Positions 4,404 to 63,203 of a stretch of DNA of 64,000 bases are shown here, piece after piece. A program made the translations under genes and the position numbers. The first letter of the stretch is position 1. The number at the start of each line of letters is the position of its first letter. Source of the DNA: Eledone cirrhosa (Eukaryota); NCBI GenBank assembly GCA_964016885.1, contig OZ024750.1:32116001-32180000 (forward strand). Direction: 5' to 3'. The notes below the pieces were generated by a model. It ran no database searches. It was not told the origin of the DNA and saw only the letters and a program-made list of their open reading frames with translations.

Positions 4404-4484
<81 letters not shown>

Positions 4485-4529
4485 TAAACAAATAATGAAC
4501 AAACAATTCTTTATATTAAACAAAAAAAG

Positions 4530-4684
4530 TTCACTATTTAACGATCGTTTCTAGGGCATATATGTGTTATAATTGGTATGCATATTTAACAGATCTATGT
4601 ACAAAATTATACAAAATTATACAAATTATCAAGATTAAATATACATACCTAACTCATATATACGCCGTCTTCAGAAATAATGAA
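4530..4684 (-). ncRNA. type I hammerhead ribozyme (mirror of 12086-12240)
   Basis: reverse complement: TTCATTATTT-CTGAAGA-long stem II-GAAA-CGATC-GTT-AAATAGTGAA. Confidence 0.8.
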
Positions 4685-5453
4685 GTATATTTATTGATAA
4701 TAACAACAATTCAAAATATCAGTTCAAAATTGACCAATGAAAACACAAAGGGTTAAAAAGCAGTTTGGTGTGTGTATATACATGTAAAACCCCACACACA
4801 TTTTACAATAATGTGTGTATAATCTGTATGTGCATACTAAAAAGATGGATGCAAATAAAAAATTTCAAGGTTAATATCTCTGTAAGCTTAATGCGCTGAT
4901 AAGATACGCAATGATACTTATGGAGTCAAGCATATAAATATATTTTTTTCATACTCACACATATCAGTATAATCACACATACATGTGCGTATATATATAA
5001 ATATACACATAACCACGAACACACAAACACACACACTCCCCCACTCACATTTATATATGTGGATATAAAATCATAAGCAAATAGAAATTAAGTCACTCAC
5101 ATAAACACACTGGTACACACATTTCAAGATCAAGATACAGAAATTAGGTGGGAGGGGGGGGGAGGGGTCAGTATTAGACTGTCAGACCAGACAACCTTAA
5201 TATAAATGTATCTATAAATTATGAAAAATAAAAAAATAAAAACAATAAAGTATAATACATATAATATAATGTACGTACGCATACAGATATACATACACAT
5301 ACATACATGTACGCGCACATAGAGATATCTATACATACATACATACACACATACCTATACTGTCATACACACACATACATTTACACGAACATACACATAC
5401 ACATATAAAAAGATATAAATACGGACACACACACGCGCAACACATACATACAT

Positions 5454-5504
<51 letters not shown>

Positions 5505-5613
5505 TATACACACACACGTAGACTCATATATATATACATACACATACATACATTTATACACAAACATATATATCCCACACTCATACCACCATAAAAACAC
5601 ATACAAACATCCA

Positions 5614-5664
<51 letters not shown>

Positions 5665-5760
5665 ACATACACACACGTACACACATATGTATATATACAT
5701 ACATATATACACACATACACATATATATATATCCACACACACACATAAAATACAGACATG

Positions 5761-5791
<31 letters not shown>

Positions 5792-5887
5792 TTCATTACT
5801 CTTATATATACACATAGTATATATACATACACAACCTCACTTATACACATATACACATAAGTTATATTACAATAATAATAAAGAATA

Positions 5888-5918
<31 letters not shown>

Positions 5919-6067
5919 CATATATATACACACATATACACATATACATACACACACATACACATACATACATACATACACATACATACATACACCTAAA
6001 TATAAACATATATAAATACACACATACGAATAAAGACATATATTCACACATAGACACCTATATACAC

Positions 6068-6099
<32 letters not shown>

Positions 6100-6129
6100 C
6101 TATATACACACACATACACATACATACAC

Positions 6130-6169
<40 letters not shown>

Positions 6170-6198
6170 GGACACACATACAGACACACATACACACT

Positions 6199-6229
<31 letters not shown>

Positions 6230-6800
6230 GTGTATGTGAGTGTGCGCCAATACATATATATATATATACACACACACATACAAACACACACAAACTCATA
6301 CATATGCATACGCACACACACACACACATATACCACATAGATACGAAGATAAACATATAAATAGAGAGACATACAAATATATACAGAACCCATATACACA
6401 TACATACAAACACGCATATACATATATATACATATATACACACATATATATTCCTATATACAAGCATACACATACACACACATTTATACATATACATACA
6501 CATATACATATCACACATTCACATACACGTACATATATAATACATATATATACATACATATACATATATATGTATGTACAATCATATATACACACTCAAT
6601 CTTACATTCATATTTACATGCTCATATATGTATTTTTATATTTAGAAATAAATACCAAAAAAACTATAAAGACACCCATCTACACATATATTCATACATA
6701 TACACTTACAAAAACAGATGATAATAGTATGGGGGAAAGGGGGGGTTTGGAGAAGGGGATCAAAGTAAATATATGTTTCAAGAAACATATAATATTTTCC

Positions 6801-6893
6801 AATATTTGGCATTATTTGGCAATATTTGGCATTATTTGGCAATATTTGGCAATATTTGGCAATATTTGGCATTATTTGGCAATATTTGGCATT
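6801..6893 (+). repeat. 10-bp tandem repeat (AWTATTTGGC)x9 at the PLE1 inversion junction
   Basis: direct inspection. Confidence 0.95.
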
Positions 6894-8817
6894 GAGAAGT
6901 CCACACTTCAACCTGAAAGATCACAAATCTAACTTTAACTCTAATCCTTCTATTAGACTTATATGTCCCTCCAAATCAGATATTGGAATAATTAGCAAAA
7001 AAATTTTAGATAGAGTCATCCCACAAATAAGAAAATACGTTATTTTACCACTCTGGGAAAACACCTCCCAGGTAATTAATTGGTTTAAAAATATTAGGTG
7101 TAAATCTTCTGCTTCTTTCCTACAGTTTGATATAGATAATTATTATTCTTCTATATCACCCATACTCCTGAACAAAGCATTAATATTTGCTAAAAATAGA
7201 TCTAGTTTAACTTCGGATGACATTAACATTATTACACATGCTAGACAAACACTTATTGAATTTCAGAATGAATACTGGACCAGAAACACTTATAGTAATC
7301 TTTTTGATATTACTATGGGTTCAAGCGATTCTGCCCAAATTACTGATCTTGTGGGCCTCTTTCTCCTTTTCAACATAAATGCCTCTTTTCCCCACCTCAA
7401 AGGTGGTTTATATCGTGATGACTGTCTTCTTCTTTCTAACAACCTTAGCCTTTCAGAAATCGAAAAAAACAAAAAGCATATTAGAACTTTCCTTAAAGAC
7501 TATTATAATCTTAATATTACTTTTGAAAAAACAAGTAAAGTAGTAAATTTCCTAGATATAACTTTAGATTTAGCTACGGGTATATACCAACCTTACCATA
7601 AACCTAACCAAAACTTACATTACATACACTCACAATCTAATCACCCTAAATCTATCCTTAAAAACCTTGCATATAATATATCACTTAGAATTTCTAACCT
7701 TTCTTCTAACCAAGATGTATTTGATAAAAATGCGACCTTTTATAATGAAGCTCTAGATAGAAGTGGCCACAAAAATAGATTAGAGTATATACCTTCTACT
7801 AAAAATACTGAAAGCATACAGCATAATATTACCAACAAACACCAAATGAAAAGTATACACCTAAATGCCACCCACAGTATACCCCAAAATACTAAATCTT
7901 TTAATATAAAGTATAGTAACCCTCAAAAAACTACTCATCATAAGACTATAATAAATATTAATAATAAAACTCCTAATAAAAAAGATAAAACACCTAAATC
8001 TACAAATATAACTAAAAATAGTTGTGGTGAGATCATTAACATTATTCCTCCTAGTAAAAATCATGATACAACATATAAAAATAATAAAAATAATAAACAA
8101 CATAGAAACCGTAATAGACGAGTTACTTGGTATAATGCTCCTTTTAATTTACAAGTTAAGGATAATATTGCTAAAAAATTTTTTTATATCCTTGAGAAAA
8201 ACTTCCCGCCAAACCACAAATACCATCAAATCTTAAATAGGTCTACAGTTAAATTCTCATATTCTACAACAAATAACATAAAACAAAATATAAGTGCATA
8301 TAATGCATATAAATGTAAGAAAACTATAAGTATACCACCAGTACATCAAATTAACAATAATATCTCCTCAATTACAGAATTAACGAAAGGATGTAACTGT
8401 AGAAACAAAACAAACTGCCCATTAAAAGGGAATTGTCTTGTTAACAACATAGTCTATAAATGTAATGTTAAAACTAAAGATTCTATTTGCTCATATATAG
8501 GAGCTACCTCTAACAATTTTAAGACAAGATATAATACCCACAAACATAGCTTTAAAAATGCCGCACTGGCTAATACAACATCTCTAGCAGAAAAAATCAA
8601 TAGTTATAAAAATAAAAATATAAAATATGATTTGACCTGGAGTGTGCTCAAAAGAGCCACCCCTTATCAAAATAATAGAAAGGAATGTAGATTATGTTCC
8701 CAAGAACTATTTGAAATAATGAAGTCTAGGGATATCTTATTAAATAAAAGACAGGAATTAATTATATCGTGTAATCATAAACTAAAAAAAACATTTAAAT
8801 ATTATAAACCTAATTAA
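6826..8817 (+). CDS. 5'-truncated PLE polyprotein: reverse transcriptase + GIY-YIG endonuclease (Nematis-like); genuine homology starts near 6894
   Basis: LKDHKSNF..RLICPSKS, FDIDNYY, ITMGS, LYRDD, VNFLDITL, SNHP, WYNAPF, CNCRNKTNCPLKGNC, IVY..YIG..FKTRY, CRLC..E..LN, CNH. Confidence 0.93.
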   Translation: MALFGNIWQYLAIFGIIWQYLALRSPHFNLKDHKSNFNSNPSIRLICPSKSDIGIISKKILDRVIPQIRKYVILPLWENTSQVINWFKNIRCKSSASFLQFDIDNYYSSISPILLNKALIFAKNRSSLTSDDINIITHARQTLIEFQNEYWTRNTYSNLFDITMGSSDSAQITDLVGLFLLFNINASFPHLKGGLYRDDCLLLSNNLSLSEIEKNKKHIRTFLKDYYNLNITFEKTSKVVNFLDITLDLATGIYQPYHKPNQNLHYIHSQSNHPKSILKNLAYNISLRISNLSSNQDVFDKNATFYNEALDRSGHKNRLEYIPSTKNTESIQHNITNKHQMKSIHLNATHSIPQNTKSFNIKYSNPQKTTHHKTIININNKTPNKKDKTPKSTNITKNSCGEIINIIPPSKNHDTTYKNNKNNKQHRNRNRRVTWYNAPFNLQVKDNIAKKFFYILEKNFPPNHKYHQILNRSTVKFSYSTTNNIKQNISAYNAYKCKKTISIPPVHQINNNISSITELTKGCNCRNKTNCPLKGNCLVNNIVYKCNVKTKDSICSYIGATSNNFKTRYNTHKHSFKNAALANTTSLAEKINSYKNKNIKYDLTWSVLKRATPYQNNRKECRLCSQELFEIMKSRDILLNKRQELIISCNHKLKKTFKYYKPN

Positions 8818-10542
8818 TAACATTATTCTAGAATTTAATTTAATTTAAATGTTAGTTAACCTATAAATTTAATTTAATTAATATTTTATTACAGATGAGA
8901 AAATATTATGTAATCATTAATTTTGAAAAACCTTTAAATATTACTAATATATATTCAGTAATTTAATTTATAGATTAATTTTAACTTATTTTAACCTTTT
9001 ATTATAATTTTTTAATTTAGTTTAACCTTTTATTATAAATTTTTTTATTATAATTCTTTTACAGATAAAATATAACAAAATAATATCATGTATCCTATGA
9101 CGGAGAAAGAATTTTTAGTATTATTGACCTAATTAATATACATTTTGGAAATATATTTATTATTTGGTTTTAGCTTTAATCAACCTAAAACTTTAATTTT
9201 AACTTTAATTTGCTTAAAATTAGTATCATTGTACAGACAAATTGCAGAATGTCATGTAATCATAGAATGGGAGGTGTTTTTGGATATATACCTAGTTAAT
9301 ATATTCTGTGCACATTTTTTGAAAAAGATATGTATATCTATATGTATATGTATATGTGTGTGTTGTACGTGTATCTGTATGTATATTTATGTGACTATAT
9401 ATGTATGTATGTGTATATATATGTATATATATATATATATATGTGTATGTATATGTATGGGTATGTGTATGTGTATGTATATGTATATGTGTGCGTATTA
9501 ATTTTGATTTTTATTTGCATATAATTATATTATGCTATTGATGAAATACAATATCTGCTTTATGTATTGTATACCTAATTAACATATACTAATTAACATA
9601 TACTATTGAAATAAATATATAATTTTTAACTTAGTTAACATATAATTTATATGCTACTACCGATGTAATACTTTATTTTATTTTTATTTTTATTTGGGTT
9701 TCTTTTCCCTATTCATCTCCTAATATTGATACCATAACGTTATTAACTTTAATTTAGTTATAATGTAATTAATAATCTACTACTGTTTGACTTCATAATT
9801 CTGCCTCAAATATTATAAACCTAACTAATTTACACCTTGGAAATCAATATGTTGACTATCTTTGGTTTAGTTGACATATGATTAATAGTATACTTTTTTA
9901 TTTTGTGATGCATAGATTTCGTATTTCCTAGCACTGAAAATATGTTAGGAACATACATTGAATTAAGATATGGAAAATATTATATGTTTCTTGAAACATA
10001 TATTTACTTTGATCCCCTTCTCCAAACCCCCCCTTTCCCCCATACTATTATCATCTGTTTTTGTAAGTGTATATGTATGAATATATGTGTAGATGGGTGT
10101 CTTTATAGTTTTTTTGGTATTTATTTCTAAATATAAAAATACATATATGAGCATGTAAATATGAATGTAAGATTGAGTGTGTATATATGATTATACATAC
10201 ATATATATGTATATGTATGTATATATATGTATTATATATGTACGTGTATGTGAATGTGTGATATGTATATGTGTATGTATATGTATAAATGTGTGTGTAT
10301 GTGTATGCTTGTATATAGGAATATATATGTGTGTATATATGTATATATATGTATATGCGTGTTTGTATGTATGTGTATATGGGTTCTGTATATATTTGTA
10401 TGTCTCTCTATTTATATGTTTATCTTCGTATCTATGTGGTATATGTGTGTGTGTGTGTGCGTATGCATATGTATGAGTTTGTGTGTGTTTGTATGTGTGT
10501 GTGTATATATATATATATGTATTGGCGCACACTCACATACAC

Positions 10543-10573
<31 letters not shown>

Positions 10574-10602
10574 AGTGTGTATGTGTGTCTGTATGTGTGT
10601 CC

Positions 10603-10640
<38 letters not shown>

Positions 10641-10670
10641 GTGTATGTATGTGTATGTGTGTGTATATAG

Positions 10671-10702
<32 letters not shown>

Positions 10703-10851
10703 GTGTATATAGGTGTCTATGTGTGAATATATGTCTTTATTCGTATGTGTGTATTTATATATGTTTATATTTAGGTGTATGTATGTATGTGTATGTATGT
10801 ATGTATGTGTATGTGTGTGTATGTATATGTGTATATGTGTGTATATATATG

Positions 10852-10882
<31 letters not shown>

Positions 10883-10978
10883 TATTCTTTATTATTATTG
10901 TAATATAACTTATGTGTATATGTGTATAAGTGAGGTTGTGTATGTATATATACTATGTGTATATATAAGAGTAATGAA

Positions 10979-11009
<31 letters not shown>

Positions 11010-11105
11010 CATGTCTGTATTTTATGTGTGTGTGTGGATATATATATATGTGTATGTGTGTATATATGTATGTATATATACATATGTGTGTACGTGTGTG
11101 TATGT

Positions 11106-11156
<51 letters not shown>

Positions 11157-11265
11157 TGGATGTTTGTATGTGTTTTTATGGTGGTATGAGTGTGGGATAT
11201 ATATGTTTGTGTATAAATGTATGTATGTGTATGTATATATATATGAGTCTACGTGTGTGTGTATA

Positions 11266-11316
<51 letters not shown>

Positions 11317-12085
11317 ATGTATGTATGTGTTGCGCGTGTGTGTGTCCGTATTTATATCTTTTTATATGTGTATGTGTATGTTCGTGTAAATGTATGTGTG
11401 TGTATGACAGTATAGGTATGTGTGTATGTATGTATGTATAGATATCTCTATGTGCGCGTACATGTATGTATGTGTATGTATATCTGTATGCGTACGTACA
11501 TTATATTATATGTATTATACTTTATTGTTTTTATTTTTTTATTTTTCATAATTTATAGATACATTTATATTAAGGTTGTCTGGTCTGACAGTCTAATACT
11601 GACCCCTCCCCCCCCCTCCCACCTAATTTCTGTATCTTGATCTTGAAATGTGTGTACCAGTGTGTTTATGTGAGTGACTTAATTTCTATTTGCTTATGAT
11701 TTTATATCCACATATATAAATGTGAGTGGGGGAGTGTGTGTGTTTGTGTGTTCGTGGTTATGTGTATATTTATATATATACGCACATGTATGTGTGATTA
11801 TACTGATATGTGTGAGTATGAAAAAAATATATTTATATGCTTGACTCCATAAGTATCATTGCGTATCTTATCAGCGCATTAAGCTTACAGAGATATTAAC
11901 CTTGAAATTTTTTATTTGCATCCATCTTTTTAGTATGCACATACAGATTATACACACATTATTGTAAAATGTGTGTGGGGTTTTACATGTATATACACAC
12001 ACCAAACTGCTTTTTAACCCTTTGTGTTTTCATTGGTCAATTTTGAACTGATATTTTGAATTGTTGTTATTATCAATAAATATAC

Positions 12086-12240
12086 TTCATTATTTCTGAA
12101 GACGGCGTATATATGAGTTAGGTATGTATATTTAATCTTGATAATTTGTATAATTTTGTATAATTTTGTACATAGATCTGTTAAATATGCATACCAATTA
12201 TAACACATATATGCCCTAGAAACGATCGTTAAATAGTGAA
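12086..12240 (+). ncRNA. type I hammerhead ribozyme with ~116-nt stem II, predicted GUU site
   Basis: stem I TTCATTATTT/AAATAGTGAA; CTGAAGA 12096-12102; GAAA 12219-12222; palindromic stem III AACGATCGTT. Confidence 0.8.
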
Positions 12241-12428
12241 CTTTTTTTGTTTAATATAAGGAATTGTTTGTTCATTATTTGTTTAATATTTTATCTTGAC
12301 TCTGTATACCGTTTATCTTTCACCGAAATTGGATTTTCATTACATCTCTTCTTTCCATGATATCCGGAATACATTGAGTTCTTCATACGGATTGGATACT
12401 ACCGTAAACTCTTGGTAGATTTATCTAC

Positions 12429-12461
<33 letters not shown>

Positions 12462-12489: not shown

Positions 12490-12923
12490 AATATACACGG
12501 GTGTGTATGATTGTGTATAGAAGATTATATTAATAAGAGGAATTCCAACTTTGTCTGATTTACTCGTTTTATTTACAATCCTTTAAAATTTATAATGGTA
12601 TTATAATGAAATAGTATGATAGAATATTAAATGTTAAGTGTTAATTGAACAAGTACATTCATGGTTTCGCAATCTTCAGGTTCATAATGTGTGGTGACAG
12701 TCAAGTTTGCAATTTTCAAATTTCCACAGTTGAAAATTGCAAACTTGACTGTCACCACACATTATGAACCTGAAGATTGCGAAAGCATGAATATACTTGT
12801 TCAATTAACACTTAACATTTAATATTCTATCATACTATTTCATTATAATACCATTATAAATTTTAAAGGATTGTAAATAAAACGAGTAAATCAGACAAAG
12901 TTGGAATTCCTCTTATTAATATA
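12490..12923. mobile_element. small fold-back element (arms ~12526-12719 / 12730-12923, left tail ~35 nt) with a minimal or degenerate HHR-like motif
   Basis: near-perfect inverted repeat; CTGAAGA-TTGC-GAAA at 12770-12784 and mirror; (TA)n flanks. Confidence 0.75.
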
Positions 12924-12934
12924 CATATATATAT

Positions 12935-13127
12935 AGGGCGTTGGATTGGCAGTATCGGTAGAGGGTCGAACGTCATGCGTTGACGCATAGAGTTATGGCC
13001 CTTGCCATTCTGAGTTCAAATCCCGCCGAGGTTAACTTTGCCTTTCATCCTTACGTGGTCGATAAAATAAAGTACCAGTAATGTACTGGGTATTTGTTGG
13101 CCTTGTGCCTAAAGTAGAAACAATTAA
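12935..13127 (+). mobile_element. family-A SINE
   Basis: full-length match to the other copies. Confidence 0.88.
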
Positions 13128-16974: not shown

Positions 16975-17188
16975 TATTTAGAAACGATCGTAAAATAATA
17001 AGTTTTACTATGAATTAACCGTTTTATGTTTAATTTCATTGTTTTCACTATTTGCATTTTTGACTCTGTATCCAATGAATTATATCGTTGAAATTTTGTA
17101 TTTTAAATTTTGCTTCACGACAAATTCTACATACGGATTACATTGAGTTCTTCATTCGGCTTAGACCCTACCATTAATTGGTGGATAT
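16975..17188 (+). mobile_element. PLE1-family 3' end (HHR 3' half + conserved tail)
   Basis: GAAACGATCGTAAAATAAT; GACTCTGTATCC...GGATTACATTGAGTTC...CTACCATTAATTGGTGG then (TA)n. Confidence 0.8.
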
Positions 17189-17998
17189 ATATGTATATAT
17201 ATATATATATATACAGTATTTTCCGTAGTGTTGTAATATAAATATTACACACAGTAGATGGACAGCTCACGTAGAGTTTGCTCGACGGTTCCAGTTGTAG
17301 TTCCAAAAGTAATCCGGAGAAAAATAGAAGGATTTTAATGGATACAGTTGAGTTAAAAGGAATTTATTGACACGTGTTTCTATAACGGTTACATAACCTG
17401 AAAACAGCTGCTATCTACAAAGTATTAGTTATGCAGACATTCAATATTTCAATGTTATTATCAACTGTCATTTCATAGGAATCATTTTACTGAGGACCTG
17501 TTTGGTTTTTATAGAGAATATTAGGAGGGAGGGGTGAAGTTGTTAGAAGAATAGTTGAGGGAGTGGTTTTTTGATAGAAGTGAGAATTGTTGGTGGCAGT
17601 GAGTAATTAGATTCCCATCTGTTGTTTTGACCAATATATTATTGGTTATTTTTCTAAATCTATAGAAGGATTAGAGATAGTATAGATATGCGTGGTTGGT
17701 TTTGTGTTTGCACTTAATTAACATTCAGACTTAAATTTTTCTTTCAAGTGTCCGTATCCTTTCGCCCACACATTCACACACAAACATATATGCACACCTC
17801 TACAAAATACATATACTCACATACACATACTTACATGCTCATACTTACATACATATACACATGCATACATATATACACATATATACATGTACATACATAC
17901 GCGTTCATGTGTATACATTTTCATACTCAACTTATCTTTATATACACACGTATAGACACACACATATATACACACATACTCCAGTCTATGTGTATATA

Positions 17999-18090
<92 letters not shown>

Positions 18091-18508
18091 TATATAAACA
18101 CTTTAATACATGAATGCACTTACATCTAACTATACACATCAAACATATATATATATTTACTTATTTATATACATTTTCACATATATATACATACTTATGG
18201 TTGCTTTTAGACACATTCATTATAGCATATTTGCACCTATTCTCATCAGCATATCTTTCCATTATTAGTGTGGTAATTTAAGGTTATTAATATACATATA
18301 TATGTTGAGAAGAGATTGTTTTTATATTTTTCTAACTAGATTGAGGTTTATATAGTTGTGGGGATGTCTCTCTTTTATGTAATATTCAGCCTTGTAGTGG
18401 GAAAAAAGGGTTTTAGTTCGGTGACGGCAGAATAATGTTCGTTCAATTCTGTTATTCAGCAATTTCCTCTTGTGTGTGATTATGTAATAGATCTCAAGAT
18501 TAAACAAT

Positions 18509-18994
18509 TTGCAGAAATTTTGGCCCGCAATACTACTCCAGAGAAAACCCAACGTACACAACTGTAACTGCACCTATGCTGACAACTTCCCCCTCGGCAA
18601 TAACTGCCTGGAAAAAAATATTATTTATAAGTGTACCATTAAATCCGGAGGCAACGAGTGGTATTACGTGGGATCAACGGCAACATCGTTTAAATCTCGA
18701 TTATATAGGCATTCTTACTCAATAAAACACCAGAGCCAAAGAAATGTAACAACTTTAGCAGAAAAAGCTTGGACGCTCAGGGATAGCGATCAAAAGTTTA
18801 CCCTAAAATGGGAGAAATTAGCTAAAACCCAAAGCTTTTCCAGGAGCCAAAATTTCTGCAAATTGTGTAATCTTGAGATCTATTACATAATCACACACAA
18901 GAGGAAATTGCTGAATAACAGAATTGAACGAACATTATTCTGCCGTCACCGAACTAAAACCCTTTTTTCCCAATACAAGCTGAATATTACATAA
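18509..18994 (+). pseudogene. 5'-truncated PLE GIY-YIG endonuclease domain
   Basis: CNC..PLGNNCL, IIY..YVGST..FKSRLY.H, CKLCNLE..LN, CRH. Confidence 0.9.
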
Positions 18995-19273
18995 AAGAGG
19001 GCATCCCCCCAACTATATAAACCTCAATCTAGTTAGAAAAATATAAAAACAATCTCTTCTCAACATATATATGTATATTAATAACCTTAAATTACCACAC
19101 TAATAATGGAAAGATATGCTGATGAGAATAGGTGCAAATATGCTATAATGAATGTGTCTAAAAGCGACCATAAGTATGTATATATATGTGAAAATGTATA
19201 TAAATAAGTAAATATATATATATGTTTGATGTGTATAGTTAGATGTAAGTGCATTCATGTATTAAAGTGTATA

Positions 19274-19379
<106 letters not shown>

Positions 19380-19893
19380 TATATACACATAGACTGGAGT
19401 ATGTGTGTATATATGTGTGTGTCTATACGTGCGTATATAAAGATAAGTTGAGTATGAAAATGTATACACATGAACGCGTATGTATGTACATGTATATATG
19501 TGTATATATATATGTATGCATGTGTTTGTATGTAAGTATGAGCATGTAAGTATGTGTATGTGAGTATATGTATTTTGTAGAGGTGTGCATATATGTTTGT
19601 GTGTGAATGCGTGGGCGAAAGGATACGGACACTTGAAAGAAAAATTTAAGTCTGAATGTTAATTAAGTGCAAACACAAAACCAACCACGCATATCTATAC
19701 TATCTCTAATCCTTCTATAGATTTAGAAAAATAACCAATAATATATTGGTCAAAACAACAGATGGGAATCTAATTACTCACAGCCACCAAAAATTCTCAC
19801 TGCTATCAAAAAACCACTCCCTCAATTATTCTTCTAACAACTTCACCCCTCCCTCCTAATATTCTCTATAAAAACCAAACAGGTTCTCAGTAA

Positions 19894-20019
19894 AATTATT
19901 CCTATGAAATGACAGTTGATAATAACATTGAAATATTGAATGTCTGCATAACTAATACTTTGTAGATAGCAGCTGTTTTCAGGTTATGTAACTGTTATAG
20001 AAACACGTGTCAATAAATT
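19894..20019 (+). ncRNA. hammerhead-like fold with variant core CCUAUGA, GUC site (mirror at ~17361-17486, minus)
   Basis: AATTATT-CCTATGA-ATGACAGTTG..TAACTGTTAT-GAAA-CACGT-GTC-AATAAATT. Confidence 0.55.
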
Positions 20020-20050
20020 CCTTTTAACTAAACTGTATCCATTAAAATCC

Positions 20051-20143
<93 letters not shown>

Positions 20144-20160
20144 TATATATATATATATAT

Positions 20161-20356
20161 AAGTTAAGACAATGAAATAAAAAATCAAGTCATTAGAGAT
20201 GTATATCTAACTTCATTTTTTATTTCATTGATTTAACTGTTTTCCTTTTAATGTTTTATTGTTTTCCGGGATTTATCTTAACCTACAACATTTTCAACAT
20301 ATGGATTACATTGAGTTGTTCCTGCAGAATAGACCCCACAACTTACCGTGGATATC
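20161..20356 (+). mobile_element. miniature PLE1-type fold-back (arms ~25 bp) plus conserved tail
   Basis: AGTTAAGACAATGAAATAAAAAAT / ATTTTTTATTTCATTGATTTAACT, then GGATTACATTGAGTT..CCAC..GTGGATAT. Confidence 0.65.
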
Positions 20357-20919: not shown

Positions 20920-21260
20920 TATCATTAGAGAGATTGCCCAGTACTCCTCGCGACGTTGCTGTCTTTTGCTCTGGTGTTGGCTCAGTCGTTCACACCTTCC
21001 TTAATATTGTAACATTAAAAGAATATATCTGTAAACGTTTTAAACTGAATACGAAATTATATATATATATTCATATATATTATATTATTTAACTATGTTC
21101 ATACATTTGTGTGTATGTTTGTGTGTGCCTATAAGACGAAATAACGTAACTTAAGCCAATATCCTTAAATACATGGTTTCCATTTTTATTTATCAATAAA
21201 TGTCTGTCCAGTTATCGTTTACAATGCTATAGTTATTGTATCTGTTTCACTTTCAATTAG

Positions 21261-21415
21261 GTGAACGTCCATTCGTTTGTCGTCGGAATGATTGTAACAA
21301 GACATTTGCCAGGAATGAAGAATTGACACGTCACCTTCGTATTCACACTGGTTATCGCCCTTATATCTGCCGTCACTGTCAGCGGAGATTTGGTCGGAAG
21401 GATCATTTACGCAAG
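21261..21415 (+). CDS. hkb: internal exon of a Huckebein-like C2H2 zinc-finger transcription factor
   Basis: acceptor TTTCAATTAG|, donor AAG|GTAAC; encodes (G)ERPFVCRRNDCNKTFARNEELTRHLRIHTGYRPYICRHCQRRFGRKDHLRK. RNEELTRH / GRxDHL match hkb-type fingers from memory. Confidence 0.8.
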
Positions 21416-21445
21416 GTAACTGCATCACACACACATACACACACA

Positions 21446-26257: not shown

Positions 26258-26308
<51 letters not shown>

Positions 26309-26461
26309 ATACTTTGGGAGGGTCATGTTGCCAATAAGAAACACACGCACCAGTTGCTTTCACTTCAATTTAATTTAATATATATTTATAAATTTACAAA
26401 TTTATAAATTTCTGGTTGGTTGGTTGGTTCCACAACCAGATAGTTGTTTATATATATATAT

Positions 26462-26506
26462 AGTCATAGTTCTTTCGTCACACACTCTGTGACCTCTTCA
26501 GTGACT
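26462..26506 (-). ncRNA. minimal type I hammerhead (mirror of 26612-26656)
   Basis: exact reverse complement of 26612-26656. Confidence 0.8.
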
Positions 26507-26611
26507 GGGGATTTCTTTCTTCGTTTCTGTGCCTTTCCTTTCTTCTATCCTACGCCAAAATGGCGTAGGATAGAAGAAAGGAAAGGCACAGAAACGAAGA
26601 AAGAAATCCCC

Positions 26612-26656
26612 AGTCACTGAAGAGGTCACAGAGTGTGTGACGAAAGAACTATGACT
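26612..26656 (+). ncRNA. minimal type I hammerhead, CUA site
   Basis: AGTCA-CTGAAGA-G-GTCACA gagtg TGTGAC-GAAA-GAAC-TA-TGACT. Confidence 0.8.
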
Positions 26657-26873
26657 ATATATATATATAAACAACTATCTGGTTGTGGAACCAACCAACC
26701 AACCAGAAATTTATAAATTTGTAAATTTATAAATATATATTAAATTAAATTGAAGTGAAAGCAACTGGTGCGTGTGTTTCTTATTGGCAACATGACCCTC
26801 CCAAAGTATAACAATATCGGTTTCAACACACGATTTCAGATAAAGAATCTTGCTAAACAAATTCAGAAACGAA

Positions 26874-27151: not shown

Positions 27152-27324
27152 GAATAATCGAGTATCGAAAAATCGGCGCACGAGTTCACGATGAACAAAA
27201 TTCGAAATGAGCGGCAGACGGCTCAATAATTCAGATAAATCAGAGCTATAACTATCGTTAAAATACCGTCACACATAGAACAAGTCTATAATCAACCGTA
27301 CGACCGAAAAATTGCGATCTGGAA

Positions 27325-28240: not shown

Positions 28241-28372
28241 TAGAAGTTCTATTTAATTCGTTGGGATACAACAAGTAAATATTTTTATAACTGATATAAA
28301 GCACTCAACAAAATTTTTGGAGTAAAAATACAATATATTAACAAATGGAAACTATATTTATAAAACCCTATT

Positions 28373-30447: not shown

Positions 30448-30499
<52 letters not shown>

Positions 30500-39328: not shown

Positions 39329-39355
39329 ATATAAGATCAAAAGATGGTTAAAGGA

Positions 39356-39440
39356 GTTCCATGTATTTTATTATGCGCATTTCAAAAACAACATCATCAT
39401 GCAATAATATTTGTGTTTTCATCAGATAAAACAGGAGAAC
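39356..39440 (-). ncRNA. type I hammerhead (mirror of 43743-43828)
   Basis: reverse complement with a 1-nt indel in stem II. Confidence 0.82.
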
Positions 39441-40464
39441 ATGATATGAAGGCTAAAAAACACTTGTGGATAGTGCAGTTTTAAATCTACATATGAAAAG
39501 TGGTTTTAGATTGATGTGTGATATTGGGAAAAATATTTTATTTAGAGAGGGGGGGTGGAAAGGATGAAAAAGGGGGAGGAGATGAGAGGGAGAGATGGGT
39601 GATAGAGAGAAAGAGATAGCTTTTATAACTGAGAGGAGATATACTGTCCCACACAGAGAGGTTGAAACCGTTGGAAGATAATGTATAAACCCCAAAAAAT
39701 TTTTGAAAATCAACGAAAGGAGGATATGTGCGAGGAAAAAGTATTTTATTTAAGGAGGGGGGCTGGAAAGGATGAAAAAAAGGGGGAGGAGATGAGAGTG
39801 AAGGTGGAGAGGGAGAGATGGGCGATAGAGAGAAAGAGATAGTTTTTATAACTGAGAGAAAGATACATTGCCTTACACAGAGAGGTTGAGAAACCGTTGG
39901 AAGATAATGTATAAATTAAAGGAATTTGAAAATTAACGAAGGGAATTTATGTATGAAGATAGAGAGAAGAAATAATAATTGTGGATGAACATTCTAACGT
40001 CAAAAAAAGGGTATGTTGTGGCAATTTCAAAATTAACGAAGAGAAAAATTATTAAGGTTTGTGTGTAGAAGGATTTGAGAAAAATAATGTGAAGTTAAAG
40101 TTTGTATATTGGAGGAATTGATAATATATGCGAATAGAGTTAATATGTATTAAGAATGAGTTCGTTGATGGGGAGAAAAAAAAATAAATTAAGGATGAAA
40201 TTGAGATTAAAAAGATTTATGAGAGAGAGAAAAAAAAAAAAAAAATGATTGCGGATAAATATTCTAACGTCAAAAAAAACAAAAAACAGATGTATATGTT
40301 ATGAATGATTTTACAAGGTGAAGATAGAGTGAGGTTAATGAGTAAACAAGTATTATAGAGTGTATAAAGCCCTTTAAAGTATGGTAGGAAGATGGGTATA
40401 TTTTAAAGAGGTGTATGTATATGTGCCTTTGAGAAAAGATTCTAAATTGATAAAGAATTGAATA

Positions 40465-41583
40465 TTAACTGTATACTTTGTGAAAAGTTCTATGGAATTT
40501 ATGCAGGCAGATAGAAAACAAATCTGTGCGTCTATTTATTATAGAATCTAGGTTAGAGATAATGGTAAATTTTTCATTTAGGCAGAGATTACAGATTTTA
40601 GATAGAGAGCTGTTCAAGTATGAGGATGCAGAAGAAATCTTCTTCCAAAAGATGGTATATTTAATGTTTTTGTCTTTTAAGGACCATATGAGTTCTGAGA
40701 GAGCAGTGTTAGTTCTTTTAAGTTTGTATTTGAAAGATGAATGATGATTATAGAGACGAGCTTTAAAAGAGGTGGAAGTGGAGCCAAAATAGGTGAAGGA
40801 ATTGGTGCTAGTTATAATTTTACATTCATAAATTAAGTTTTTATCGAGACAATGATTGTTGAGAGGACATTTATTTTTAATGCGGCAGTTGCAATTAGAG
40901 AGATTATTAATGAGTGATCTAGTGTTATCTATAGAAGGAATTGGATTGGAGAAGTTGTTTGCGATAGGAATAATAGGAATAATAGTTTCTTGATTTAGAG
41001 TTGGATTATGAACATTTAGCGAAGTTGTGTTTGACGTTGTATTTGGGTTTACAGAAGTTAGCCTAGGGTTTACAATGACGTCGGGAGTACTATTACTGTT
41101 ATTATGAAATTCAATATTGGAAGGAAGATATTTAGTATTTAGTATTTTATTGTTGTGTTTAGAGATGATGTTGGAAATATTGGAGGATGTAGAATACGAA
41201 AATTTGATGGTGTGTTTGTTAAATATTTTACTATAGATATGTGAGGGAGGGAAGCATTTATTTAAGGCACTAAAAAATAATTTAGGAATATTGTTATTAA
41301 TAGAGATGGAGAAAGGAGGATTATACCAGATTATGTTTTTGTATCTAGGTCTTTTATTAAAATTATTGGAATGGTCATGATTAATTATTCTACTGTAAGT
41401 TTTTCTAGAATTTGTTTCTTTACTATATTTGATTTTATCTGGATAGCCGGCTTTAGAAAGTGCGTTATTATAGTAATTGGCGTTAGCATCAAAGATGTTT
41501 TTATTAGAAGATATGTTAGATATTCTATTTCCAATATTATTAACTATAGCATTCTTGATATTGGTAGGATGGTTAGATTTAAA
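40465..41583 (-). pseudogene. inverted copy of the truncated PLE3 ORF (thumb/linker + GIY-YIG)
   Basis: identical translation from SNHP onward to the + copy. Confidence 0.9.
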
Positions 41584-41598
41584 GTTGGTATCGTTAGA

Positions 41599-42717
41599 TT
41601 TAAATCTAACCATCCTACCAATATCAAGAATGCTATAGTTAATAATATTGGAAATAGAATATCTAACATATCTTCTAATAAAAACATCTTTGATGCTAAC
41701 GCCAATTACTATAATAACGCACTTTCTAAAGCCGGCTATCCAGATAAAATCAAATATAGTAAAGAAACAAATTCTAGAAAAACTTACAGTAGAATAATTA
41801 ATCATGACCATTCCAATAATTTTAATAAAAGACCTAGATACAAAAACATAATCTGGTATAATCCTCCTTTCTCCATCTCTATTAATAACAATATTCCTAA
41901 ATTATTTTTTAGTGCCTTAAATAAATGCTTCCCTCCCTCACATATCTATAGTAAAATATTTAACAAACACACCATCAAATTTTCGTATTCTACATCCTCC
42001 AATATTTCCAACATCATCTCTAAACACAACAATAAAATACTAAATACTAAATATCTTCCTTCCAATATTGAATTTCATAATAACAGTAATAGTACTCCCG
42101 ACGTCATTGTAAACCCTAGGCTAACTTCTGTAAACCCAAATACAACGTCAAACACAACTTCGCTAAATGTTCATAATCCAACTCTAAATCAAGAAACTAT
42201 TATTCCTATTATTCCTATCGCAAACAACTTCTCCAATCCAATTCCTTCTATAGATAACACTAGATCACTCATTAATAATCTCTCTAATTGCAACTGCCGC
42301 ATTAAAAATAAATGTCCTCTCAACAATCATTGTCTCGATAAAAACTTAATTTATGAATGTAAAATTATAACTAGCACCAATTCCTTCACCTATTTTGGCT
42401 CCACTTCCACCTCTTTTAAAGCTCGTCTCTATAATCATCATTCATCTTTCAAATACAAACTTAAAAGAACTAACACTGCTCTCTCAGAACTCATATGGTC
42501 CTTAAAAGACAAAAACATTAAATATACCATCTTTTGGAAGAAGATTTCTTCTGCATCCTCATACTTGAACAGCTCTCTATCTAAAATCTGTAATCTCTGC
42601 CTAAATGAAAAATTTACCATTATCTCTAACCTAGATTCTATAATAAATAGACGCACAGATTTGTTTTCTATCTGCCTGCATAAATTCCATAGAACTTTTC
42701 ACAAAGTATACAGTTAA
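41599..42717 (+). pseudogene. 5'-truncated PLE ORF (RT thumb, linker, GIY-YIG), Nematis-like
   Basis: SNHP, IIWYNPPF, CNCRIKNKCPLNNHCL, LIY..YFGST..FKARLYNH, CNLCLNEK, CLH. Confidence 0.92.
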
Positions 42718-43742
42718 TATTCAATTCTTTATCAATTTAGAATCTTTTCTCAAAGGCACATATACATACACCTCTTTAAAATATACCCATCTTCCTACCA
42801 TACTTTAAAGGGCTTTATACACTCTATAATACTTGTTTACTCATTAACCTCACTCTATCTTCACCTTGTAAAATCATTCATAACATATACATCTGTTTTT
42901 TGTTTTTTTTGACGTTAGAATATTTATCCGCAATCATTTTTTTTTTTTTTTTTCTCTCTCTCATAAATCTTTTTAATCTCAATTTCATCCTTAATTTATT
43001 TTTTTTTCTCCCCATCAACGAACTCATTCTTAATACATATTAACTCTATTCGCATATATTATCAATTCCTCCAATATACAAACTTTAACTTCACATTATT
43101 TTTCTCAAATCCTTCTACACACAAACCTTAATAATTTTTCTCTTCGTTAATTTTGAAATTGCCACAACATACCCTTTTTTTGACGTTAGAATGTTCATCC
43201 ACAATTATTATTTCTTCTCTCTATCTTCATACATAAATTCCCTTCGTTAATTTTCAAATTCCTTTAATTTATACATTATCTTCCAACGGTTTCTCAACCT
43301 CTCTGTGTAAGGCAATGTATCTTTCTCTCAGTTATAAAAACTATCTCTTTCTCTCTATCGCCCATCTCTCCCTCTCCACCTTCACTCTCATCTCCTCCCC
43401 CTTTTTTTCATCCTTTCCAGCCCCCTCCTTAAATAAAATACTTTTTCCTCGCACATATCCTCCTTTCGTTGATTTTCAAAAATTTTTTGGGGTTTATACA
43501 TTATCTTCCAACGGTTTCAACCTCTCTGTGTGGGACAGTATATCTCCTCTCAGTTATAAAAGCTATCTCTTTCTCTCTATCACCCATCTCTCCCTCTCAT
43601 CTCCTCCCCCTTTTTCATCCTTTCCACCCACCCCTCTCTAAATAAAATATTTTTCCCAATATCACACATCAATCTAAAACCACTTTTCATATGTAGATTT
43701 AAAACTGCACTATCCACAAGTGTTTTTTAGCCTTCATATCAT

Positions 43743-43828
43743 GTTCTCCTGTTTTATCTGATGAAAACACAAATATTATTGCATGATGATGTTTGTTTTT
43801 GAAATGCGCATAATAAAATACATGGAAC
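43743..43828 (+). ncRNA. type I hammerhead, AUA site, palindromic stem III
   Basis: GTTCTCCTGTTTTAT-CTGATGA-AAACACAAATATTATT..GATGATGTTTGTTTTT-GAAA-TGCGC-ATA-ATAAAATACATGGAAC. Confidence 0.85.
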
Positions 43829-43944
43829 TCCTTTAACCATCTTTTGATCTTATATTATGCATACTCCAGTCCTACAAACTGTAGAGTGCTTCTTATCCGA
43901 TATCTGCATTGCTTTATTGTATTACAATAAAACTCACCTCCTAC

Positions 43945-43982
<38 letters not shown>

Positions 43983-44935: not shown

Positions 44936-46555
44936 ACACACACATATATATATATATATATACATACACACACGTATATATATGGGCCTTCTAGTTTCAT
45001 TTCACATTATATACATGTCGGCGAATATTTTCGTTATTTAAAAATTATTTTTAAGTGAACATGACTTTTAAAAAAATATTTTGAACTGAACGTGACCCAA
45101 CGGGTCACCGGTTGTCTAGTAATTAACTAAAATGACTAATTATGGTTTGTACAAAATGTTATTAACATAAATAGCATTACTTACTATATTTAACTTAATT
45201 TGGGTCTATTTAGTCTGCGAGGAATAGATTTTCTCCGATAATGGCCATAAATGGTTAAAAGATAAGAGTATTAAATTGTGACGTCACTAATTCATTTACG
45301 TCATTGAAGAAGGAAAATTGTGTTGGTTCCATATTAAAGATATCAGTAGACGTTTAATAAAAATCTTTCAATCAAATATGTTATCTAAGAAAATCTATTA
45401 CAAGATACAAACACATCTTAAACTATTTAGGTGACTTTCATGACTTTCTTCGAATATATCCATACATTGAATGGTTGACTGTATATACGTGTTGTATTTT
45501 CTAGAAAAAAAAAACTTTTCTCGTTCCTTCTTCCCACTCTCTATCTGTCTATTTCATCTTTTAATTCTTATTCTATCTTCAGATGAGGGACTATATCAAC
45601 CGTTAAACTAATATATATTTTCATGGTACTGTGTCATTTGCTTTGTTATTTCTTTTTACTTTTTACACACACATTAATTTATATGTTTACTACATTCGTT
45701 GCGTACTATGATAATTAATTCCATCCAAAATACTACAGGGATCCCAGTTATTAAGAGATACATATTCATCCAGGCCCAACCCTCTCGCACGATTATCTTT
45801 ATCTCGTCACTTAAATTGTTTCTCTTCCTTCACTCTCATATACCATCCTCTTAACAGAATCCTCAATCATTTTTACTCTCAATTTTCTCGCACAACCCTC
45901 GTTCTACAATGGAGTTCATGGGTGAAATGTCTTATTTGGTAGGTCAGGACAGGTTCAAGACTAAAGAGTTCTAACAATCATGACTGTTATCGAGGTAATA
46001 TAGTCCGTATATTAAAGGACCACCAGAATGAACATAATGTATCAGGAATTGTCATAAAGTGTCAGGAATTATCATTCAAGGGACATCAGGGTAAGAAACT
46101 ATGAGATTAAATTCCATGAGACGACACTTTATAAATGTGACCAGTTCCTGTCATACGCAGTAACAATGTAGTATAACTCCTTACCCCTGAAAGAACAATA
46201 GAAACATAAGTCAGAATACTACAATCGTCACAATTACATATGAATATATATATATATGTTTGTTTTCACATCGTTAAATTCTGGTATAGCAAATAATCAA
46301 AATAATCTTTTCGAGGAAAATACTGAAATGGCGGCGATTGCATTCCTCAGGCTAAGTGTTACATGTGTAGATACAAGTAGACATGTTATAGGTTTTACGT
46401 TAACATGGATTACATTCAAGGCATCGGTGGTGAGTGAGAAATATATATCATTGATTTTAATTCCAGTTGAAATCTATTTTTTTTAACATCTATAACATCT
46501 ATAACATCTATATCTGAAAGCAGTACTATTGACAATGAAGTTTGTGTGGGTGACA

Positions 46556-46978
46556 TATATTATCTAATAATTGTTTCTACTTTTTGGCACAAGGCCAGCA
46601 ATTACCCAGTGCATTACTGGTACTTTATTTTATCGACCCCGTAAGGATTAAAGGCAAAGTTAACCTCGGCGGGATTTGAACTCAGAATGGCAAGGGCCGT
46701 AACACTATGCGTCAAAGTATGGCGTCCGACCCTCAACCGATACTGCCATTCCACCGCAATATATTATCTAATAATTGTTTCTACATTTGGCACAAGGCCA
46801 GCAATTACCCAGTGCATTACTGGTACTTTATTTTATCGACCCCGTAAGGATGAAAGGCAAAGTTAACCTCGGCGGGATTTGAACTCAGAATGGCAAGGGC
46901 CGTAACACTATGCGTCAAAGTATGGCGTCCGACCCTCAACCGATACTGCCATTCCACCGCAATATATTATCTAATAAT
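46556..46978 (-). mobile_element. two near-identical tandem family-A SINEs separated and flanked by ATATATTATCTAATAAT
   Basis: ~203-bp direct repeat; the flank motif occurs 3 times. Confidence 0.9.
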
Positions 46979-47440
46979 AGTGTCTGATTTAGACATATCA
47001 ACAATTTAGAGTGTGTGTGTGTGGGGGGGGGGGGGGTCAATTTAAATCAACCCCAGTGCGTAACTGGTATTTTATTTTATCGATTTAGTAAAGATGAAAA
47101 CCAATGCAAACTTCGCCGCTATTCAAACCCAGAAGTAAAGGGTCGTAATTCAATGTCGCAATGCATGCTGTCCGACGTTCTATCGATTCTGTCAACACCA
47201 CCTCCCTTATATATTACCTGATAAAAAAGTAACAAAATAACTCCCCTTAATTGTTTCCACTTTTGGCACAAGGCCAGCAATTATCCCAGTGCATTACTGG
47301 TACTTTACTTTATCGACCCTGTAAGCATCAAAGGCAAAGTTAACCTCGGCGGGATTTGAACACAGACCGTAAAGGACCTTAACTCTATGCTGCTAACATG
47401 ACGTCCGACCTTCTATTCATACTGCCAATCCACCGCCCCT
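46979..47440 (-). mobile_element. two further family-A SINEs (diverged 46979-47210; 47248-47440)
   Basis: central domain and B-box matches. Confidence 0.75.
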
Positions 47441-47944: not shown

Positions 47945-48202
47945 ATATATATATATATATATTTTTCATTCATATATATTTTTATTTGTTTGACCCGATT
48001 TTTCTTGATCGTAATTTTGGCTGTGCGAATGATTGTTTAAGCATCGTCTTAGTGTGTTGGTATTAAACGTTAGTTATAGCTCTGGTTTATCCGAACCATT
48101 GAGCACTTTGCCGCACATTTCGAAGATTGTTTTTCGTTATTTCGTGGGCCGAAGTTTCGATTCTCGATAATATTATTTGTATATATTCTCGATAATTTTA
48201 TT

Positions 48203-53874: not shown

Positions 53875-54098
53875 GAAGGTAATATCAGTAGTGGTAGAGC
53901 ACTCAGTCCATGGGACGAGTTAGGTAGAGGTGGTTACACAACAGTTAGTTCACCATACCGAGAACAATTGCTTCACCTTAGCGGATCCTCAGCTCGTAAT
54001 GGGCATGGTGTTCCGTATAACCATGCCCATTACTAGCTGAGGATCCGCTAAGGTGAAACAATTGTTATCGGTATGGTGAACTAACTGTTGTGTAACCA

Positions 54099-56304: not shown

Positions 56305-56382
56305 TCTTCTTCTTATACTTTCACTCGTGTAGGATATCTCGTTTCTTTTATTGAAAAAACTTCATTTATATATATATATATA

Positions 56383-57288
<906 letters not shown>

Positions 57289-59049: not shown

Positions 59050-59250
59050 TAACGAAGGAACAGTGGTAAGGAACCAGATGGACAATAACGTACCAGAGTA
59101 CTCAATACTTAGGGTAGTAGAGTGGGTAATAGGAAAATGTTTGACCCCCACGGCAGAGCTCAAGCCGTTTCGACGGCTATTTCTGGACTATTCCAGAAAT
59201 AGCCGTCGAAACGGCTTGAGCTCTGCCGTCGAAGTCAAACATTTTCCTAT
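59050..59250 (-). mobile_element. short fold-back + tail, same family as 21752-21955, opposite orientation
   Basis: GAGCTCAAGCCGTTTCGACGGCTATTTCTGGA/TCCAGAAATAGCCGTCGAAACGGCTTGAGCTC. Confidence 0.78.
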
Positions 59251-61829: not shown

Positions 61830-63200
61830 TATAAATTAATAAAAACAATGAAATAAAAACAAAAAAAAAGGTTGCTTATATTGAAAAATTCATCATTTTA
61901 CGATCGTTTCTGGGATATATATGGGTGTTGGTATGTATATCATATTAAAGATCTATGTAAAAAGAAATATTACAAATAATCAGAGGAGATATACATACCT
62001 TCACCTATACATGCCATCTTCAGAAATGATGAAGTATGTTTATTGAAAGAAACAAAGTATTAAATTTTAACTCTGTAAGTATATCTATCAATTAATATAA
62101 TTTCCTTTTATGTATCTAGGTTTCTTGTTTCTTGATATTTAAATAGTATTAGTATTTCTCACTAACACTCTCATCACCCCAATTTTTTTTCCCTTCGCTT
62201 TTAACAGCATTATTTGATAACATCCAGGGCGGTGAATTGGCAGTATCGGTAGAGGGTTGGACGCCATGCTTTGACGCATAGAGTTACGGCCCTTGCCATT
62301 CTGAGTTCAAATCCCGCCGAGGTTAACTTTGCCTTTCATCCTTATGGGGTCGATAAAATAAAGTACCAGTAATGTACTGGATAATTGCTGGCCTTGTGCC
62401 AAAAGTAGAAACAATTATTTGATAACATCCTTACGGGGTCGATAAAATAAAGTACCAGTAATGCACTGGTTAATTGCTGGCCTTGTGCCTAAAGTAGAAA
62501 CAATTATTTGATAACATCAATCCCGCCGAGGTTAACTTTGCCTTTCATCCTTACGGGGTCGATAAAATAAAGTACCAGTAATGTACTGGTTAATTGCTGG
62601 CCTTGTGCCAATAGTAGAAACAATTATTTGATAACATCAATTTTTTGGGAATCCTTCAATATCTCCTTGATTTGATCTCATTTTAACCCCTATCTCTTCC
62701 CCATTGTATTCTTTTCATTCAAAGCATACATTTACATTCCTCCACTCCTAGCATTAAGTTCTACTGTTATTCTATCAACTTGACCGTTAACTCCTTTCTA
62801 TTGGTCAATTCAAAACCTGTTCCCAAACAGACTTTTTATATTAATACTTTGTTTCTTTCAATAAACATACTTCATCATTTCTGAAGATGGCATGTATAGG
62901 TGAAGGTATATATATCTCCTCTGATAATTTATAATATTTTTTTACATAGATCTTTAATATAATATACATACCAACACACATATATATCCCAGAAACGATC
63001 GTAAAATGATGAATTTTGCAATATAAGGAACCTGTTCTTTGTTTTTATTTCATTGTTTTTATTAATTTATCTTGACTCTGTTTTCCTATGATTTTTTATC
63101 TTTAATTTTTTAATGCATTTTCTCTTTTCATAATATCTTCTATATTTGGATTATATTGAGTTCTTCATACGGATTGGACACTGCCGTTTATTTTGGTAGA

Positions 63201-63203
<3 letters not shown>
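61830..63203 (+). mobile_element. PLE1-related non-coding fold-back (arms 61830-62064 / 62841-63069, tail 63070-63203) with long-stem-II HHRs at 61889-62033 (-) and 62871-63013 (+)
   Basis: TTCATCATTT-CTGAAGA..GAAA-CGATC-GTA-AAATGATGAA; the tail is homologous to 12295-12428. Confidence 0.88.
62210..62640 (+). mobile_element. family-A SINE plus two 3' fragments, each bounded by ATTATTTGATAACATC
   Basis: the 16-bp flank is repeated four times. Confidence 0.88.

Follow-up and report, generated by a model that had tools for sequence, protein, structure and literature searches.

Results

Layout of the insertion

The window (the whole 64,000-nucleotide stretch analysed here, from a 3.0-Gb, (TA)n-rich animal genome) holds an insertion that spans 4476-12428 and in which an inverted arm, a 5'-truncated ORF, a long 3' region rich in microsatellites, a hammerhead motif and a tail follow one another, with 12295-12428 forming the right end (Table 1). 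The element to which this tail belongs is a Penelope-like element (PLE) of the Hydra clade, a telomerase-related retroelement. Full-length relatives (L102, with the ORF at 484-2925, and L103) encode a single 813-aa ORF with YRDD and YIG motifs (by eye), in which the reverse transcriptase (RT) is followed by a C-terminal GIY-YIG endonuclease, as in the Hydra clade. The RWK motif is present as RWR (one change), DKT (read as SDKT) replaces DKG, the CxCx5C linker takes the form CNCRNKTNC, and CRLC (CxxC) and CNH (CxH) lie near the end, while no CCHH motif was seen by eye in the 813-aa protein, as expected for this clade. We assign the element to the Hydra clade because these features match the marks (RWK, DKT, CxCx5C, CxxC and CxH, without CCHH) given in the consulted text of PMC8557442. 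Most sampled arm ends run into (TA)n, the target of the clade, and the unit is ~6.7 kb long. The protein has 118 homologues and its N-terminus resembles Hydra-1_Obim (by eye); Pfam gave no match on four window ORFs, and no relative was found among the viral contigs searched.

Two side observations were made in the window. Where the inverted arm meets the truncated ORF (6800-6885), ~8 tandem copies of a 10-nt unit are found, which look like the product of reiterative copying by the RT. An exon-like stretch at 21233-21420 encodes C2H2 zinc fingers (RPFVC..HTGYRPYIC) and probably belongs to a host gene with insertions in its introns.

Table 1. Coordinates of element features in the window.
Feature	Position	Strand	Remarks
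Inverted tail-less arm	4476..6801	-	Copy of 9971-12294; runs out into (TA)n
5'-truncated ORF	6793..8817	+	98% identity to the full protein, of which it covers residues 171-813; RT and, C-terminal to it, GIY-YIG with CxCx5C linker
Type I hammerhead motif	12086..12240	+	Core CTGAAGA 12096-102; GAAA 12219-22; predicted cut after 12230
U-rich linker, hammerhead to S1	12231..12294	+	Final base is the tail-less end point
Tail	12295..12428	+	In register with the first ~135 nt of the tandem copy's 5' UTR; ends ..CTAC, then ATA into (TA)n
Stem S1	12298..12380	+	G-ACTC-TGTAT (12298-12307) with ATACA (12369-73), TT bulge (12374-75), GAGT-T (12376-80)
Subfamily terminal hairpin CTACCG/TGGTAG	12399..12418	+	Weak covariation; not seen clade-wide
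Subfamily C tail	17059..17188	+	ACTC at 17063; preceded by hammerhead 3' half only
Subfamily D stub	20162..20356	+	Short tail-less inverted arm (from 20162) and tail with S1 5' strand deleted
Tail, another family	28250..28330	-	S1 at 28323; partner arm ends 30449-30452, 5 nt before the stem
Tail, unrelated Hydra-type family	43856..43947	+	ACTC-CAGT/ACTG-TA-GAGT at 43863; 4.5-kb arm ends 4 nt before
Tail, family F	56380..56470	-	Arm end at -7
Tail, another family	59052..59131	-	S1 at 59123; partner arm ends 5 nt before the stem
Subfamily B tail	63071..63203	+	ACTC at 63075; the inverted arm (61834-62063) is tail-less and stops at -4

The tail and its basal stem

An earlier note on this DNA had read the tail as a conserved, covarying RNA domain, closed at its base by a stem that marks where the tail-less arm ends and followed by a terminal hairpin. 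The 15-nt motif GGAWTAYATTGAGTT, on which this reading was built, is indeed exact in all four window copies (at 12366, 17135, 20303 and 63148) and has 9,933 exact matches in the genome versus 12 for the reversed control. The proposed basal pairing, hereafter S1, fared unevenly: the minimum-energy fold of the 12295 copy contains it (GACUC-UGUAU/AUACA-UU-GAGUU) together with the terminal hairpin (z -2.06), but the folds of the 63070 and 17058 copies are without it, and the other three tail copies fold no better than their shuffles (z -0.74, -0.97 and +0.19). The 20235 copy, which had been thought to keep the pairing strand, lacks GACT; it is short of 13-14 nt that other subfamily-D copies have. 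S1, at 12298-12380, is built around a 71-nt inner segment and closes 70-77 nt within the four subfamilies of this genome.

Covariation among the copies of the window, as claimed in the same note, was not borne out: the main S1 pairs are invariant in 17 copies of four subfamilies, and shuffled alignments do as well on every measure (138/500 for the covariation score, 373/500 for double changes). The compensatory changes reported for the terminal hairpin come down to one family-wide double change, U-A to C-G, which did not beat the shuffles either. Both this hairpin and the loop of 60-70 nt are peculiar to subfamilies and lie outside the clade-wide signal described below. No hammerhead-bearing inverted arm was found for the 17058 copy. 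Inspection by eye also suggested that ATCCG might pair with CGGAT across the bulged stem, but subfamily C does not keep this pairing and it was dropped.

The possibility that the tail is an unrecognised ribozyme gained no support, no Rfam family matching it. A search of 12040-12435 with E values up to 10 returned one chance miRNA match and was of limited sensitivity, in that it missed the hammerhead motif as well; across the window, microsatellite miRNA noise made up the picture among the 150 of 383 matches listed. An HDV-like fold, considered by eye from general knowledge of that topology, was discarded.

The hammerhead motif and the 5' edge

Upstream of the tail, 12086-12240 folds as a three-way junction (z -5.2) from which hammerhead cleavage is predicted, with an atypically long stem II (~110 nt) and a stem III of 2 bp capped by a palindromic GATC loop. 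The pattern of its 3' core has 15,022 matches in the genome versus 0 for the control. In a sample of loci (L031-L100), 37/87 arms start at most 11 nt upstream of the hammerhead CUGA core, which corresponds to 12086-12095 in the window; a script had scored 48 such arms, of which 11 were removed by eye because the reference was unfit for their subfamily. These arms form near-perfect palindromes of ~420 nt, and their start differs from the hammerhead cut site. Such starts suggest that an RNA 5' end lies there, perhaps a transcription start, and we take the TCATT word at this edge to resemble an initiator element.

Six of the hammerhead-edge arms are joined directly to the 3' end of a ~190-nt SINE-like repeat, which presumably carries tRNA-like boxes and is found at 12936-13126, 46555-46985, 61590-61781 and 62226-62637 of the window and at L048, L065, L067, L069 and L078. 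The fusion of its 3' end to the hammerhead edge suggests template jumps between the two RNAs. As a separate observation, family F (L241 and L242), which has many long ORFs, shows the hammerhead core CAGAAGA in place of CTGAAGA, so that cleavage may be dispensable in that family.

A second stem beyond the tail

In tandem copies the tail continues into a 5' UTR, with the ATG about 155 nt further on, so the tail is the start of the next unit, and the order within a unit is hammerhead, linker, S1, spacer, second stem (S2) and ORF. In subfamilies A and B, S2 (GCTC-CTA..TAG-TT-GAGC) lies just past the tail end, closes 60-105 nt and finishes about 30 nt before the ATG. Read-through matches with a GCTC-type word after the tail end number 491 versus 10 for the control, with examples from all four subfamilies. 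The tail at 12428 falls 5 nt before the expected S2 start. S1 and S2 are 138 nt apart here versus 43-79 nt in 26 other families.

Among 42 tailed hammerhead cores (see below), 3 read through and 5 break early, which leaves 34. The ends of 31/34 lie 3-9 nt before S2 (27 at -4 or -5, and 4 others), and the remaining three are at -13, in (CT)n flanks. It is on the basis of these 31 ends that S2, and not the terminal hairpin, likely sets the far end of the tail. The tail is therefore no self-contained domain, as its far end precedes a stem that is itself uncopied. The reading of the earlier note, in the form that S1, the large loop and the terminal hairpin together make one protein-binding domain with starts at the S1 base and at the RNA 3' end, is in our view very improbable: all four subfamilies retain the hairpin, with a single double change, and the distance from it to the tail end is about 10 nt, but the unit continues beyond the tail into S2 and the ORF, and the offset before S2 is identical in families without such a hairpin.

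Arrays of three units are present in the genome. A further array, at G000:C1:269187982-269189973, holds five subfamily-C tail/S2 read-through matches at a spacing of ~280 nt or multiples thereof and is possibly non-coding and retrozyme-like, with both stems kept.

End points of insertions

The positions at which insertions end were scored at 87 hammerhead cores in the first 32 Mb of contig C1, with patterns that favour subfamilies A and B; a DNA search of the genome itself returned near-identical full-length matches that are uninformative for end points. Forty-two cores continue into S1 and 45 are tail-less. As the earlier note had stated, the window arms at 4476, 47941 and 61834 stop at TTTAT, and in the sample 42/45 tail-less ends lie 4-7 nt before the ACTC of S1: 31 at exactly -4, 11 at -5 to -7 and 3 scored elsewhere, one of which is an alignment artefact of a deletion. 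The fixed end before S1 is real. Together with the ends before S2, these positions indicate that both tail ends obey one rule.

Two features of the ends bear on how they arise. Five of the 45 tail-less ends repeat their final 4-16 nt, a stutter that would be expected of an RT restarting at a fixed site, and in (CT)n flanks the ends move to a TCT site. A longer ATATA match to the (TA)n target, located in the linker, is used in only 1/45 tail-less ends. One could suppose that the function of the stems lies in translating or transcribing the ORF and that the ends merely reflect T/A-rich microhomology with nearby (TA)n. End points do overlap TAT or ATA, and S2 is found 35-70 nt before the start of the ORF match in 24/26 families; the near absence of ends at better TA matches nearby, and an offset that holds at both stems across unrelated sequences, make this explanation most unlikely, and the stems may have an additional role in translation.

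The stem in other families and organisms

Beyond the four subfamilies, the window holds tails of other families (Table 1). In full-length copies of family F elsewhere, S1 is followed, immediately beyond the end of the tail, by a minimal S2 (GCTC-C-TTCG-G-TT-GAGC). Several further structures were noted on inspection. Another Hydra-type family forms a 4.5-kb near-perfect palindrome at 39329-43855; its centre measures 15 nt, each arm contains a hammerhead and the tail is on one side. A family with a GIY-YIG fragment (18491-18994) occupies 17190-20053, its left arm tailed with a TCTC-CGG..CCG-TC-GAGC stem and its right arm ending 3-4 nt before the stem; the 20235 copy is a separate insertion beside it. 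Hammerhead-bearing palindromic stubs lie at 12531-12918, 26305-26813, 53930-54099 and 60548-60893; in the 53930 stub a stem bulged by 1 nt lies at some 9 nt from the arm end, and no such stem was seen by eye in the 12531 and 26305 stubs. Canonical GCTC..TT-GAGC stems of one further family, at 48079-48110 (+) and 27215-27246 (-), both continue about 100 nt into (TA)n, and no hammerhead was found for this family.

To extend the comparison, an alignment of 40 proteins was used to retrieve 90 metagenome and genome-bin loci, which group into 72 families at 80% identity and whose proteins are only 34-44% identical to the query. The word NN-GAGC-RC occurs 4.6 times per kb in the sense strand of the 5' UTR versus 0.56 in the antisense strand and 0.36 in ORFs, and 110/122 occurrences have RCTC within 110 nt upstream. 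We assembled 85 non-redundant stems from 51 families, picked by flanking words without requiring pairing. Their successive inner positions pair in 81/85, 56/80, 38/50 and 23/37 cases versus shuffle means of 64, 34, 19 and 14, position 5 is unpaired, and the bulge is TT in 63, TC in 13, TA in 8 and other in 1. With one stem per family, 124.6/151.4 cells are paired versus 81.2 in shuffles, a value that 0/200 draws reach. Where the inner part is 11 nt long (eleven stems), 5/8 pairs show double changes, with a score reached by 0/500 shuffles; for 22 stems with an 8-nt inner part, mostly S2, covariation was not significant (36/500 and 122/500 shuffles). The shuffles ignore kinship, so that these fractions are not probabilities. 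A single hairpin of 19 nt is the smallest stem, and base identity at the end point is not conserved.

Both stems are present in 26 families, with S2 positioned relative to the ORF as given above. In 17/31 end comparisons among the foreign loci, the end falls 0-8 nt before a stem (9 at S1, 8 at S2, in 13 families); 11/31 are far from a stem (by eye: broken sister copies, inversion junctions and TA-run alignment), 2 near ones were dropped as TA-run alignments and 1 is at -12. No stem was obtained in 21/72 foreign families, many of them cut contigs. By eye, the stem is also visible in published consensus sequences of PMC8557442 from coral, sea cucumber and copepod: in Hydra-2_Amil, Hydra-2_Ajap and Hydra-1_Ajap (at its extreme 5' end) and, if one mismatch is allowed, in Hydra-1_Crog. 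Hydra-type PLEs with (TA)n flanks were also present on 13 contigs (L198-L210) that are catalogued as bacterial genomes or bins and likely represent contamination by animal hosts.

The same fixed offset would arise if each stem directed an RNA cut 4-5 nt upstream, by a protein or by self-cleavage, and copying then began at an ordinary RNA 3' end. End positions would be identical, and in the main text of PMC11167929 RNA-seq read ends are described as coinciding with the start sites. We nevertheless regard such a cut as quite unlikely: the tail has no Rfam match, a smallest stem of 19 nt, with no conservation at the end point, does not resemble the core of a ribozyme, and independent cuts lack the coupling that would be needed for the single tail per insertion described in the next section.

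One tail per insertion

Among outward-facing inverted pairs of arms, exactly one tail is present in 23/28 (p 0.0005). Three pairs scored as tailed on both sides are inner read-through pseudo-LTRs (pLTRs) with a tail-less far end, and one scored as tailed on neither side is a three-part insertion with one tail, so that 27/28 insertions have a single tail. L043, in which neither arm is tailed, is a true exception; at L235, outside the 28-pair sample, both arms are tailed. At L008, L009, L108 and L110 the tailed arm begins inside the tail and has nothing in common with the other arm. Such non-overlapping arms require two syntheses, unless the centre was deleted later, palindromes being unstable. 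Snap-back of the tailed cDNA was dropped as a general rule, since the tailed arm is the shorter one in about nine pairs and non-overlapping in four; snap-back copying may account for some of the perfect palindromes.

On the basis of the end positions and the covariation across families, we think that the tail is bounded by two bulged stems of the form RCTC-helix-loop-helix-TY-GAGY, each of which probably binds the RT-endonuclease and sets an RT start 4-5 nt on its 5' side. Binding of the protein to the stems and RT initiation at them are what we infer from sequence and by analogy. A cis-acting stem at a fixed distance from an internal start, as in the earlier note, is well supported by end positions and cross-family covariation; the hammerhead, the second stem and the identity of the tail with the 5' UTR had escaped that note, and the hairpin and loop on which it dwelt are extras.

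We envisage that the RT-endonuclease, possibly as a dimer, would nick both strands of a (TA)n target and that the protein bound to a stem would present the bases 4-5 nt upstream of it to one nicked strand. One 3'-OH would prime before S1 and yield the tail-less arm, and the opposite 3'-OH would prime before S2 and yield the tailed arm; the two cDNAs would extend toward each other and be joined head to head. The tail would then be the distance between the two starts, and a few bases of primer-template pairing would fine-tune each start. S2 is never copied at a 3' end, so linear copying would lose one signal pair per generation. For full-length tandem copies to arise, the template would for this reason have to be circular or come from a parent of several units, or the RT would have to jump between templates.

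Alternatively, the stems might act in DNA, with cDNA hairpins cut at a fixed distance by the GIY-YIG endonuclease and the cut ends joined to the target. The consulted text of PMC8557442 ascribes the tail to resolution of an intermediate by the endonuclease, that of PMC11167929 cites tail-dependent cleavage by the Drosophila Penelope endonuclease, and our strand test on the stems (G-U 17 versus A-C 10) is compatible with either an RNA or a DNA hairpin. Against this, the terminal stutters and the target-dependent shifts of the ends fit priming better than a fixed cut, the non-overlapping arms need two syntheses, and the RT starts of a lizard element map onto its tail ends (main text of PMC11167929); we consider cutting of DNA hairpins unlikely and retain RT starts set by the stems.

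Discussion

The element class, the tail and internal initiation were already known; what the literature searched does not describe is a covarying stem that occurs twice, each copy at a set distance from one of the two ends. A pair of priming events from opposite target strands is familiar from L1 twin priming, in which it leads to inversion, the second start being set by chance microhomology and the arms being non-overlapping. By contrast, both starts are fixed in the element described here and the arms usually overlap.

The closest precedent is the lizard (Anolis) Poseidon PLE, PAc, to which the earlier note referred: two internal RT starts flank its tail (Frangieh et al. 2024, PMC11167929), so that the precedent is real. 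As reported in the main text of that study, both target strands are cut and extended, and RNA about 55-60 nt 3' of the start is needed. PAc resembles the present element in its AT-rich target, the hammerhead upstream and a tail bounded by two starts, which in our case are proposed ones (PMC11167929), and the tail found here agrees in part with published tails of this type, from which it differs in length (~135 nt versus 30-40 bp). PAc belongs to another clade, however, an AC-rich stem-loop within the ORF is the site of its starts, and the main text of PMC11167929 describes no repeated signal or fixed offset.

Within the Hydra clade, tails are 30-40 bp long according to the consulted text of Craig et al. 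(2021, PMC8557442), in which their origin is attributed to the endonuclease and a structure within the tail is not described. The likeness extends to an RT followed by GIY-YIG, a hammerhead, (TA)n targets, an inverted 5'-truncated copy and a one-sided tail, whereas units in that text are mostly under 3 kb versus ~6.7 kb here, with a stem II of ~110 nt in our element. Animal non-LTR retrozymes have type I hammerheads and tandem units, a circular RNA template has been proposed for them and they have been linked to PLE pLTRs; unlike the present element they are non-coding, and the parts of these reports that we consulted describe no RT start signal (PMC7229834; bioRxiv 10.64898/2026.07.22.740005). 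No description of a twin-stem signal was found in the text of the openly accessible literature searched.

We put forward, tentatively, that the stem is a portable RNA start signal of ~20 nt, used in duplicate, and that the RT works as a dimer, with one subunit on either stem, so that the two strands of a cut target are primed simultaneously. If so, dual docking would by itself explain the one-sided tail and the outward-facing inverted arms; the tandem pseudo-LTRs would follow if a circle made by the hammerhead, or a template jump, is added. A portable signal would also mean that the stem, grafted 4-5 nt behind any RNA, would set the start of copying, which could allow a chosen start point in an RT-based insertion tool.

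How PLE tails and inverted ends form is an open question, named as a next task in the consulted text of PMC8557442. The study of PAc (PMC11167929, main text) found internal starts without a defined signal, and the twin stem supplies mutants with which such a signal can be tested, in an element that comes with young full-length ORFs. The finding also bears on how RNA templates are positioned in the sister group of telomerase.
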